A stretch of 32,000 bases of DNA from Ignicoccus islandicus DSM 13165 (lineage in GTDB: Archaea > Thermoproteota > Thermoprotei_A > Sulfolobales > Ignicoccaceae): the NCBI RefSeq assembly GCF_001481685.1, contig NZ_CP006867.1:660001-692000 (forward strand), in the 5' to 3' direction. A program made the position numbers and the translations under genes. Below are positions 3,698 to 5,972 of this stretch, piece after piece. Every line of letters begins with the position of its first letter. Within the stretch, counting starts at the first letter, position 1. The notes beneath the pieces were generated by a model. That model saw only the letters and a list, made by a program, of their open reading frames with translations, searched no databases and was not told where the DNA came from.

Positions 3698-3721
3698 ACC
3701 TACCCCTTGGAAGCGAGAGGA

Positions 3722-4066
3722 ATGAAGAAAGACTCAAGGAAGTTACAACGCCAGGTGGCTAGGGAAGCATTTTTCGAACTTATTGAAATTTCCAGAAAAG
3801 AGGTAAGGAGTGGAAACTGGGAAAGGGCCTCTCAGTTAGGTGAACTGGCTTTCAAAGTGGCTCGGAAGGGAAAAGTAAGAGTACCTATTGAGACTAAGAG
3901 AGCCTTCTGTAGGAGGTGCCACATACCTCTCATTCCAGGTATTACAGCACGCATTAGATTGAGACGCAAAGGGAGGTTAACGATCGTCCTCTCATGTTTA
4001 AATTGTGGATACGTACGTAGATATCCGGTAACGGAAGTTGAGAGTAAGGGATCTCCATCAGAGTAA
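3722..4066 (+). CDS. rnp4: RNase P protein component 4 (Rpp21/Rnp4)
   Basis: Helical N-terminus plus a C-terminal zinc ribbon, FCRRCHIPLIPG...RLRRKGRLTIVLSCLNCGYVRRYP, typical of Rpp21. The ORF track starts at TTG 3707; I prefer ATG 3722, which follows GAGAGGA. Confidence 0.8.
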   Translation: MKKDSRKLQRQVAREAFFELIEISRKEVRSGNWERASQLGELAFKVARKGKVRVPIETKRAFCRRCHIPLIPGITARIRLRRKGRLTIVLSCLNCGYVRRYPVTEVESKGSPSE

Positions 4067-4533: not shown

Positions 4534-5695
4534 CGATGTTCATTACGACGTCGAGCGGTGCGTTCGTCTTTACGTTCCTATAATCATAGTGTGTAATTAC
4601 TGCACGATATCCTAGCTCTTTAAGTCTTTCAACGACCAGCTTAGGTTTGGGCATATGTGTTTTTAGGGAACTGCAGATGCTTTCTATACTATATGAATAG
4701 GGCACCCCGATGGAATCCTCTTCAAGGATTCTTAATAAGAACTTCTTTATTTCCTCGTTTTTAACTATCTCCAGTTTATCCTTAAAGAATTTCTCGTCAG
4801 TAAGGTTACCTAACCAAATTGGTCCTATGAGCTTCCTTGGGTTGCTTACCGCGTCCTCTGGTAAGGGGTAACCTTTTATGGGGATTACTTCTAAACCATT
4901 AATGTAGAGATATCCTAGGTTCTTTAACGTCTCATCTACCCTTCCAGCCCCCCTCTCTGCTTTAAAGGTAACTCGTACGTAATAATCCTTGAAAAAGGAG
5001 AACAAAGGCCTTAAAGCTACTTCCCTGATCGCGGCTAATCTTATAGCTGCGGAAATCAACGTCCTTATCGCAACTTCTTTCGAAAAAGGTGTTCTTACGA
5101 TCTTTACTGAATACCTCCTAAGGGCCGTATTAGGACGAGCTCCGCTTAAGGCGGCGGTATCGGTTGCTGTTAAGGCAATTAAACCATTTCTCTTGACGCT
5201 CCTCACGGCACCGTCTAGAAATGGTATAGGGGAACCGAATGGGTCTATGTCAACGATATCGTAATAAGTTTCCCTAATTTTCTTCGAATGAAGGACAACA
5301 TGGGCGTCTTCTTGTATAGCTCTGATCTTTTTGTCAACGCTATTAAGCTTTGCATTTACGTTAAGTAAACGAATAGCTAAGGGATTTAAGTCAGCTGCTA
5401 GAACGAAGTCGGCATTCGCTTCCTTAGCGTATCTAACGCTTCTTACGCCACTTCCAGCTAGGGGTTCTAGGACCGTCAGAGAGTTATTAGAAGCTCTATA
5501 TATTCTGGCGATTTCGATTGCAGTATCTCTATTGAATTTCGCTTTGGGATTATAGAAGACGGGGGCATGTGCCGGTTCGTAAATACCATCGCTCCTCACG
5601 TAAAAACTCATGGATGGTACGACTACTTTTACTTCCCCTTCGTCAATTAAATCTACGGGAAATCCCAATTCCTTCTCTATCTGAGTTAAGTCCAA
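4511..5695 (-). CDS. trm1: tRNA (guanine(26)-N2)-dimethyltransferase Trm1
   Basis: 394 aa. FYNPKAKFNRDTAI, LEPLAGSGVRSVRYA and DIDPFGSPIPFLD motifs are characteristic of Trm1. TTG start. Confidence 0.92.
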   Translation of the reverse strand: MDLTQIEKELGFPVDLIDEGEVKVVVPSMSFYVRSDGIYEPAHAPVFYNPKAKFNRDTAIEIARIYRASNNSLTVLEPLAGSGVRSVRYAKEANADFVLAADLNPLAIRLLNVNAKLNSVDKKIRAIQEDAHVVLHSKKIRETYYDIVDIDPFGSPIPFLDGAVRSVKRNGLIALTATDTAALSGARPNTALRRYSVKIVRTPFSKEVAIRTLISAAIRLAAIREVALRPLFSFFKDYYVRVTFKAERGAGRVDETLKNLGYLYINGLEVIPIKGYPLPEDAVSNPRKLIGPIWLGNLTDEKFFKDKLEIVKNEEIKKFLLRILEEDSIGVPYSYSIESICSSLKTHMPKPKLVVERLKELGYRAVITHYDYRNVKTNAPLDVVMNIVRDLSPR

Positions 5696-5740: not shown

Positions 5741-5798
5741 TGGTAGCCGGGCGGGGATTCGAACCCCGGTCACGGGGGTTCCCCCCACCTTCCCGGCT
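5741..5798 (-). other. 58-nt tRNA-like element: acceptor stem, short hairpin, T arm and ACCA. Truncated tRNA, split-tRNA 3' half or pseudogene.
   Basis: RNA sense is AGCCGGG AAGGT GGGGG GAA CCCCC GTGAC CGGGG TTCGAAT CCCCG CCCGGCT A CCA. It has a perfect 7-bp acceptor pairing, a canonical T arm, a 5-nt variable loop and encoded CCA. Only 23 nt sit where the D arm and anticodon arm should be. Confidence 0.4.
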
Positions 5799-5832
5799 CG
5801 CGACCCCCTCCCCTTAGGAGCCCTCCGCCTAG

Positions 5833-5939
5833 TGGCGGGCCCGCGGGGATTTGAACCCCGGACCACCGGCTTTCTTCCCGACGAAACCCCGCATGACGGA
5901 TAGGAGGCCGGCGCTCTGTCCTAGCTGAGCTACGGGCCC
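5833..5939 (-). tRNA. tRNA-Arg(CCT) with 29-nt intron at 37/38, CCA encoded
   Basis: RNA sense is GGGCCCG TA GCTC AGCTAGGACA GAGC G CCGGC CTCCTA [intron] A GCCGG TGGTC CGGGG TTCAAAT CCCCG CGGGCCC G CCA. All four stems are Watson-Crick. Confidence 0.9.
5872..5900 (-). other. tRNA-Arg intron (canonical 37/38 position)
   Basis: Intron is TCCGTCATGCGGGGTTTCGTCGGGAAGAA. Its 3' GAAG pairs with loop nt 32-35 (3 of 4 pairs), and CCG near its 5' end pairs with an internal CGG, giving a relaxed bulge-helix-bulge. Confidence 0.8.
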
Positions 5940-5963: not shown

Positions 5964-5972
5964 TCTAAAAAG
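5964..5972 (-). promoter_or_regulatory. Putative TATA box for the tRNA-Arg transcription unit
   Basis: Minus-strand CTTTTTAGA lies about 25-33 nt upstream of the tRNA 5' end and overlaps the stop codon of the upstream UPF0179-like gene. Confidence 0.4.

Follow-up and report, generated by a model that had tools for sequence, protein, structure and literature searches.

A 58-nt element behind tRNA-Arg(CCU) in Ignicoccus islandicus DSM 13165 is probably, at a rough probability of 0.6, the 3' half of a split (trans-spliced) tRNA-Gln(CUG), co-transcribed with tRNA-Arg(CCU) and joined to a putative 5' half encoded elsewhere. Split tRNA genes, which are rare, stand at the centre of the debate about tRNA gene fragmentation. 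The element lies on the minus strand at positions 5798 to 5741 of the window, by which we mean the whole stretch of 32,000 nt that was analysed, and reads AGCCGGGAAGGTGGGGGGAACCCCCGTGACCGGGGTTCGAATCCCCGCCCGGCTACCA, in the segments AGCCGGG, AAGGTGG, GGGG, AA, CCCCCG, TGAC, CGGGG, TTCGAAT, CCCCG, CCCGGCT, A and CCA. An earlier note on this DNA had described a 58-nt minus-strand element of this sequence 34 nt after tRNA-Arg(CCU), and our re-reading of the strand agrees; the GC-rich 34-nt spacer with CTCCTAA that it also described was found at 5832 to 5799. Its statement that no full cloverleaf can be folded is likewise in line with our results, as the 58-nt element is called neither by ARAGORN nor by the Rfam tRNA model RF00005, the latter even at E <= 10.

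The genes on either side of the element are encoded on the same strand. Upstream, tRNA-Arg(CCU), which has an intron and an encoded CCA (5835 to 5833), extends from 5939 to 5833 (Rfam RF00005, 56.5 bits at 5836–5939), and a T-rich TATA-like box, TTTTTAGA, lies at 5971 to 5964, approximately 25–32 nt ahead of it. Downstream, trm1 (tRNA m2,2G26 methyltransferase; Pfam TRM, 317 bits) occupies 5695 to 4511 and starts 45 nt beyond the CCA of the element. A gene for the RNase P protein subunit Rpr2/Rpp21 (3707 to 4066, plus strand) is convergent with trm1 and lies approximately 450 nt from its end; with an RNase P subunit, Trm1 and the tRNA genes, the locus thus groups three functions in tRNA maturation.

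The last 38 nt of the element (5778 to 5741) correspond to positions 38–73 and CCA of crenarchaeal tRNA-Gln. A scan for the T arm and acceptor strand, taking one genome per species, matched at least 120 loci, and all those listed belong to Desulfurococcales, Acidilobaceae, Pyrodictiaceae, Sulfolobales, Ignisphaera and Ignicoccus. Among the matches listed, CCCCCGTGA together with CCGGGGTTCGAATCCCCGCCCGGCTA is present in 105 of 120 classified copies (counting the window and its relatives), and the pattern forms the 3' end of an intact tRNA-Gln gene in 93 of 120. These intact genes, which ARAGORN names tRNA-Gln(ctg) or tRNA-Gln(ttg), have the consensus AGCCGGG TC GTCT AGCGGCCAAG GAUG CGGGG CU-YUG-G C CCCCG UGAC CGGGG UUCGAAU CCCCG CCCGGCU A. 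Exon 2 of the element (5778 to 5744) comprises C38, the anticodon-stem 3' strand CCCCG, the variable loop UGAC, the T arm CGGGG-UUCGAAU-CCCCG, the acceptor 3' strand CCCGGCU and discriminator A, and is identical to exon 2 of intact tRNA-Gln(CUG/UUG) genes at Desulfurococcales, Acidilobaceae and Sulfolobales loci; it is followed by a genomically encoded CCA (5743 to 5741), which is read directly and is present in four of four orthologues. Judged by this identity, the exon-2 match is far beyond chance and the 58-nt element can be taken to carry a tRNA-Gln 3' half.

Homology also shifts by one base the register proposed in the earlier note, which had read CCCCC as the anticodon strand and allowed a 5-nt variable loop: C5778 is position 38, CCCCG is 39–43 and the variable loop UGAC has 4 nt. 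The initiator identity towards which that note leaned does not hold either. Here A1:U72 with discriminator A is the signature of tRNA-Gln, and the leaning is explained by archaeal tRNA-Gln having A1:U72; with the 3' half assigned to tRNA-Gln by homology and by the ARAGORN calls on intact genes, initiator tRNA is ruled out.

The element breaks off at the canonical intron site 37/38, immediately before C38. The intact tRNA-Gln genes among the matches listed include 38 that are intronless and 55 with an intron of 13–175 nt exactly at 37/38. The six nucleotides before C38 in the element are GGGGAA (5784 to 5779), and the same six positions in the cis-spliced genes among the matches listed are GGAGAA (18 genes), GAAGAA (7), GGGGAA (4) and similar sequences. 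The first four of these intron-end bases pair with nucleotides 32–35, and the last two form, with C38, the 3-nt bulge of the bulge-helix-bulge. Among the matches listed, the 4-mer is GGAG or GGGG in all 27 CUG genes compared to 6 of 28 UUG genes, most UUG genes having GAAG or GAGG, and the GGGG of the element is complementary (G.U pairs included) to CUCU at positions 32–35 of the tRNA-Gln(CUG) 5' exon. By this comparison GGGGAA is a genuine intron-type 3' end as found in CUG genes and, since it stands right before C38, the element is a tRNA-Gln exon 2 with a CUG-type intron 3' end in front of it. Elsewhere, the tRNA-Gln genes at L010, L011, L027, L080 and L085 appear to have an extra non-canonical intron in the anticodon-stem region (e.g. 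GGGGC-AGGTAGC...CTACC-CCCGAGTTTGG), besides or in place of the 37/38 intron.

The order tRNA-Arg(CCU), spacer, Gln half, trm1 is found at four loci, namely the window, Ignicoccus pacificus DSM 13166 (L053), a metagenome-assembled genome (MAG; L002) and a hydrothermal-vent contig (L248), and UPF0179 precedes this unit in three of the four (the window, L053 and L248). The UPF0179 and Trm1 proteins of I. pacificus are 72% and 55% identical, respectively, to those of the window, and the window Trm1 is 50–59% identical to its nearest relatives. Exon 2 and CCA are identical at 38 of 38 positions across all four orthologous loci, compared to an identity of only 59–74% in the spacer and leader, and in the orthologues C38 is preceded by GGGGAA or GGAGAA. 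The flanks thus drift while every base of exon 2, including those of the unpaired variable loop and T loop, stays that of a working tRNA-Gln; the purifying selection on exon 2 to which this pattern points is the strongest argument that we have, and a decaying pseudogene would be hard to reconcile with it. Two more distant relatives (L254 and L255) have UPF0179 and tRNA-Arg(CCU) without the Gln piece, and trm1 occurs without the element at six Trm1-anchored loci (L004, L005, L250, L251, L252 and L253). We regard trm1 as a conserved neighbour, any functional link of which to the Gln piece is putative.

An independent assembly of the same organism (L001, Logan contig ERR9765777_4157), in which UPF0179 is 100% identical, stops approximately 120 nt past the UPF0179 stop codon, inside tRNA-Arg and just short of the Gln piece, which is consistent with an assembly break at a repeated tRNA sequence. 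An ancestral tandem of tRNA-Arg and tRNA-Gln, considered on the basis of L055, L087 and L091, was rejected since the upstream gene at those loci is tRNA-Lys(UUU) and tRNA-Gln has its own promoter.

The spacer (5832 to 5799) and the leader AGCCGGG-AAGGTGG (5798 to 5785) are 72% G+C, and there is no TATA-like box in the 34 nt between the CCA of tRNA-Arg and the leader, from which we infer transcription from the tRNA-Arg promoter. Boxes also stand upstream of tRNA-Arg in L053 (aatttataaa), L002 (aattttataaa) and L248 (aaaagttaaaaaa), and the T-rich box at 5971 to 5964 is likely to be the promoter of the whole tRNA-Arg/Gln-half unit. Within the spacer, GGGCTCC (5823 to 5817) recurs at each of the six loci compared (the window, L053, L002, L248, L254 and L255), 9–14 nt past the tRNA-Arg(CCU) CCA, and is able to pair, with one U bulged, with GGGCCC of the tRNA-Arg 3' acceptor strand. 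The nucleotides that follow its CTCC vary (CTCCTA in the window, CTCCAG in I. pacificus, CTCCTG in L248 and CTCCAC in L254), only GGGCTCC being conserved. A link between CTCCTA and the anticodon loop of tRNA-Arg(CCT) had been drawn in the earlier note; the match is real as sequence, but CTCCTA is not conserved, and the conserved GGGCTCC is a tRNA-Arg trailer motif that occurs also where the Gln piece is absent. Its presence in L254 and L255 without the Gln piece similarly weakens the idea that GGGCUCC of the spacer mimics the anticodon stem-loop in cis (pairing GGAG..CCC).

The leader starts with AGCCGGG, a copy of the tRNA-Gln 5' acceptor strand, and continues into AAGGTGG-GGGG-AA, which is similar to intron 3' halves, for example that of CCCACCCATGGTGGGGAGAA in L021; GGTGG resembles the 3' arm of the intron inner helix. 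The acceptor-like strand pairs with the acceptor 3' strand in four of four orthologues, over 6–7 bp, with changes from A:U to G.U and from C:G to U.G and with a 1-nt bulge in two. All four orthologues can adopt a cis fold composed of a 7-bp acceptor, a U/CGGGG-CCCCG hairpin and the T arm; 97% of cells form pairs, none of the three substitutions within the pairing strands breaks a pair, and the 4-nt linker varies at every column. As evidence from sequence, the kept acceptor pairing is suggestive only, because the partner strand is invariant and true covariation is thus impossible. The fold has a z-score of -2.1 and the minimum-free-energy structure is a different, competing G/C hairpin, so by prediction the fold of the element is not by itself exceptional.

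Stand-alone tRNA-Gln halves are common in uncultured Desulfurococcales. Approximately 16 of 120 loci among the matches listed contain the 3' half only, which follows a TATA-like, AT-rich box and a leader of about 20 nt that is GC-rich (L009, L015, L017, L026, L031, L033, L037, L038, L058, L059, L098, L107, L109, L113, L122 and L126); these belong to uncultured Desulfurococcales, Ignisphaera and Sulfolobales MAGs. At five of them (L015, L017, L098, L107 and L109) a 5' half is found 0.7–2 kb upstream on the same strand, and its trailer is largely complementary to the leader of the 3' half, exactly so in L015, where reverse-complementing the leader GAGGGTAGGGATCCGCTA gives the trailer TAGCGGATCCCTACCCTC. 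Two Ignisphaera MAGs each contain one intact and one split tRNA-Gln gene. The five split genes are like the element in their identical exon 2, in the 37/38 junction and in having GGAG or GAAG plus 2 nt before C38. They are unlike it in having a 5' half at that distance upstream, a leader unrelated to the acceptor stem and an AT-rich promoter box of their own, which is present in every other stand-alone 3' half and absent from the element.

A further difference is that three of the split loci (L015, L107 and L109) contain a LAGLIDADG homing-endonuclease ORF (Pfam LAGLIDADG_3 / Hom_end) on the opposite strand, in the 0.66–0.74-kb gap between the halves (approximately 4661–5401 of the oriented locus in L015); the ORF is frameshifted in L107. 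This suggests a concrete splitting mechanism, with homing-endonuclease invasion of the 37/38 intron as one route to split tRNA-Gln genes. We found no mention of LAGLIDADG in the split-tRNA literature searched.

The element has much of what is expected of a split 3' half, that is, a contiguous 3' part running to CCA, a break at 37/38 and a GC-rich leader with a bulge-helix-bulge half-site, and lacks an own promoter upstream of the leader. The earlier note had listed four possible origins or roles for the element, and of these the 3' half of a split tRNA is best supported, by the break at 37/38, the intron-like upstream end and the split tRNA-Gln genes in relatives.

Neither strand of the 32-kb window contains a tRNA-Gln 5' exon, a CGGGGCUYUGG stem-loop or a complement of the leader, and the same features were absent from L001, L002, L053 and L248 (approximately 6–8 kb each for the last three). 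Their absence from the window rules out a tRNA-Gln spliced in cis within it. A permuted tRNA gene was rejected as well, since the 5.7 kb downstream, like the rest of the window on both strands, contains no 5' exon. In other MAGs tRNA-Gln often lies beside TFB, SUI1 or agmatinase; the 21-kb agmatinase-TFB locus of I. pacificus (L247), chosen by synteny, contains no tRNA-Gln piece. A metagenome scan with a loose pattern for 5' halves with a CCCGG-containing trailer returned at least 120 loci, and all those listed were chance matches.

We propose that a two-gene precursor is transcribed from the tRNA-Arg(CCU) promoter, and that the 20-nt leader of the Gln half would present the usual intron 3' end, GGGG-AA, directly before C38. 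A separate 5' half, consisting of positions 1–37 and a trailer N-CCACC..., would anneal to the leader and exon 2 to form the bulge-helix-bulge; the crenarchaeal splicing endonuclease would then cut before C38 and RtcB ligase would join the exons, giving a normal tRNA-Gln. The predicted sequence of this 5' half is AGCCGGGTCGTCTAGCGGYCMAGGATGCGGGGCTCTGG, followed by the trailer N-CCACC and perhaps continuing TTCCCGGCT, the trailer being complementary to the leader ...AGCCGGGAAGGTGG; for the relatives we predict the trailers N-CCGCC(TGCCCGGCT) (I. pacificus), N-CCATCGCCCGGGCT (L002) and N-CCGCTCGCC (L248). In size, with 58 nt in the precursor and 35 nt in the mature part, the Gln half equals other published 3' halves that are split at 37/38 (PMC3218864, Table 1).

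Since the leader still holds AGCCGGG, the piece probably arose by internal deletion, in which an intron-containing tRNA-Gln gene would have lost positions 8–37 and the 5' part of its intron. The two halves of the split tRNA might even each keep a copy of the acceptor stem; if so, duplication combined with reciprocal internal deletion would be documented as a route to split tRNAs. The retained AGCCGGG may close the free half into an acceptor/T-arm mini-tRNA, and, so folded, the half could be more stable at high temperature and could be released by RNase P from the tRNA-Arg precursor. Protein subunits of RNase P are present, Rpr2/Rpp21 being encoded in the window and Rpp30 on a contig of the same organism.

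Four considerations count against a split tRNA: there is no 5' half in the window or the orthologue loci, the published Desulfurococcales surveys list no split tRNA-Gln, the element has no own promoter, unlike other split 3' halves, and conservation extends to those bases of the leader with which the invariant acceptor strand is able to pair, which a freely co-varying leader/trailer duplex does not predict and which fits a self-contained fold equally well. The last of these bears on the possibility of a free-standing functional mini-tRNA, that is, a 58-nt acceptor/T-arm RNA with CCA that is cut from the tRNA-Arg precursor by RNase P and 3'-end enzymes and is never spliced, an archaeal counterpart of mascRNA. 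Possible roles for such an RNA include a tRNA-Gln mimic, decoy or regulator for enzymes reading the A1:U72/T-arm face, and a processing or punctuation signal or regulator of trm1, which follows the element directly in four lineages. Its fold is possible in all four orthologues with pairing kept and the linker variable; a functional minihelix was among the options of the earlier note. mascRNA/MEN-beta (RF01684) is like the element in its size of approximately 55–60 nt, its acceptor stem and T arm, its reduced D and anticodon regions and its position at the end of a longer transcript, and RF01684 is the sole Rfam match of the element; however, at 26.6 bits (E 0.004) the match is weak and falls below the gathering score of 42.5, so the family threshold is missed and the likeness is in fold only. 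mascRNA is mammalian, whereas the element is a literal tRNA-Gln exon and not a diverged mimic. Were the element a mere structural signal, compensated T-stem changes and unrestricted variable-loop changes should be tolerated, but there are none and the sequence stays tRNA-Gln. With a modest z-score, a different hairpin as the minimum-free-energy structure and relatives that express trm1 without the element, we consider an unspliced mini-tRNA improbable.

Much the same history of deletion could have left a non-functional relic, if an intron-containing tRNA-Gln behind tRNA-Arg lost positions 8–37 and what remained is harmlessly transcribed, its identity kept by gene conversion from intact tRNA-Gln genes. 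AGCCGGG joined straight to an intron-like 3' end does look like the product of a deletion, and that part of the earlier note's internally deleted pseudogene agrees with the origin we suggest for the split half. No 5' half is present in any locus examined (the 32-kb window and the orthologue loci), partial tRNA fragments are known in Desulfurococcales (PMC3218864), and the outgroups L254 and L255, in which tRNA-Arg(CCU) lacks the piece, indicate that it is dispensable at this site. However, a dead pseudogene is contradicted by 38 nt that are perfect, with their splice-site context unchanged, in four diverged lineages whose Trm1 is only approximately 55% identical, while the adjacent spacer and leader have changed at 26–41% of positions; a 38-nt conversion tract without flanking homology, in four small genomes that never deleted the piece, is a strained explanation, and a relic of this kind is in our view unlikely. 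Integration of a virus or plasmid could also leave a duplicated 3' part of a tRNA as an attachment-site remnant, as tRNA genes are targets of crenarchaeal integrative elements, which leave 3' fragments behind (PMC3293823, PMC3218864); examples of fragments made by mobile-element integration are tRNA-Thr-F of Caldiarchaeum (PMC3293823) and partial tRNAs in A. pernix (PMC3218864), and like the element these are partial tRNAs away from any intact copy. Such fragments are population-level or species-specific and lie beside recombinase genes, whereas the element is conserved across genera and keeps its synteny in four lineages, and the tRNA fragment in it begins at the intron site, behind an intron-type end. 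There is no integrase or mobile-element gene among trm1, tRNA-Arg, UPF0179 and the window ORFs scanned (Rpp21, FeoB and a GAPDH-type dehydrogenase), and a 26-nt pattern of the 3' sequence had no matches in 2.9 million viral contigs. The attachment-site option of the earlier note is thus hardly credible, and a viral origin was rejected on the viral-contig scans, which gave one chance match and zero matches.

In the searchable literature, neither a 37/38 split tRNA-Gln nor the present 58-nt element is described. Published surveys of split tRNAs in Desulfurococcales reportedly included I. hospitalis, although the text of PMC3218864 does not name it. No split tRNA-Gln is reported in the published Desulfurococcales surveys, and published lists of split tRNAs comprise tRNA-Asp, tRNA-Lys and the N. 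equitans and Caldivirga sets (PMC3218864, PMC4033280). The split tRNA-Gln(UUG) of N. equitans is joined at 32/33, not 37/38; split tRNAs joined at 37/38 are tRNA-Glu, tRNA-His and tRNA-iMet of Nanoarchaeum equitans and tRNA-Asp(GUC) from Aeropyrum pernix and Thermosphaera aggregans (PMC3218864). The element is like these published 37/38 cases in its 35-nt 3' exon starting at position 38, its GC-rich leader of approximately 20 nt ending in a bulge-helix-bulge half-site, its precursor of approximately 58 nt and its hyperthermophilic crenarchaeal host with a splicing endonuclease (PMC3218864). It is unlike them in its isoacceptor, tRNA-Gln(CUG), in having no own promoter, in its position 34 nt behind tRNA-Arg(CCU), in a leader that repeats the 5' acceptor strand and in that its 5' half was not found in the window or the orthologue loci.

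If the 5' half exists, the Ignicoccus lineage would have a split tRNA-Gln(CUG) that is absent from the published lists searched, with a promoter-less 3' half riding on the transcript of a neighbouring tRNA and with its origin still visible in the fusion of the 5' acceptor strand to an intron 3' end. As tRNA finders miss the Gln piece, tRNA-Gln(CUG) may mistakenly be counted as missing from Ignicoccus-type genomes. Elsewhere in the window, the minus strand from 24829 to 21131 contains a 1232-aa ORF without a Pfam match, in a stretch that has a low G+C content of 0.36–0.38 compared to approximately 0.43 and a strong GC skew.
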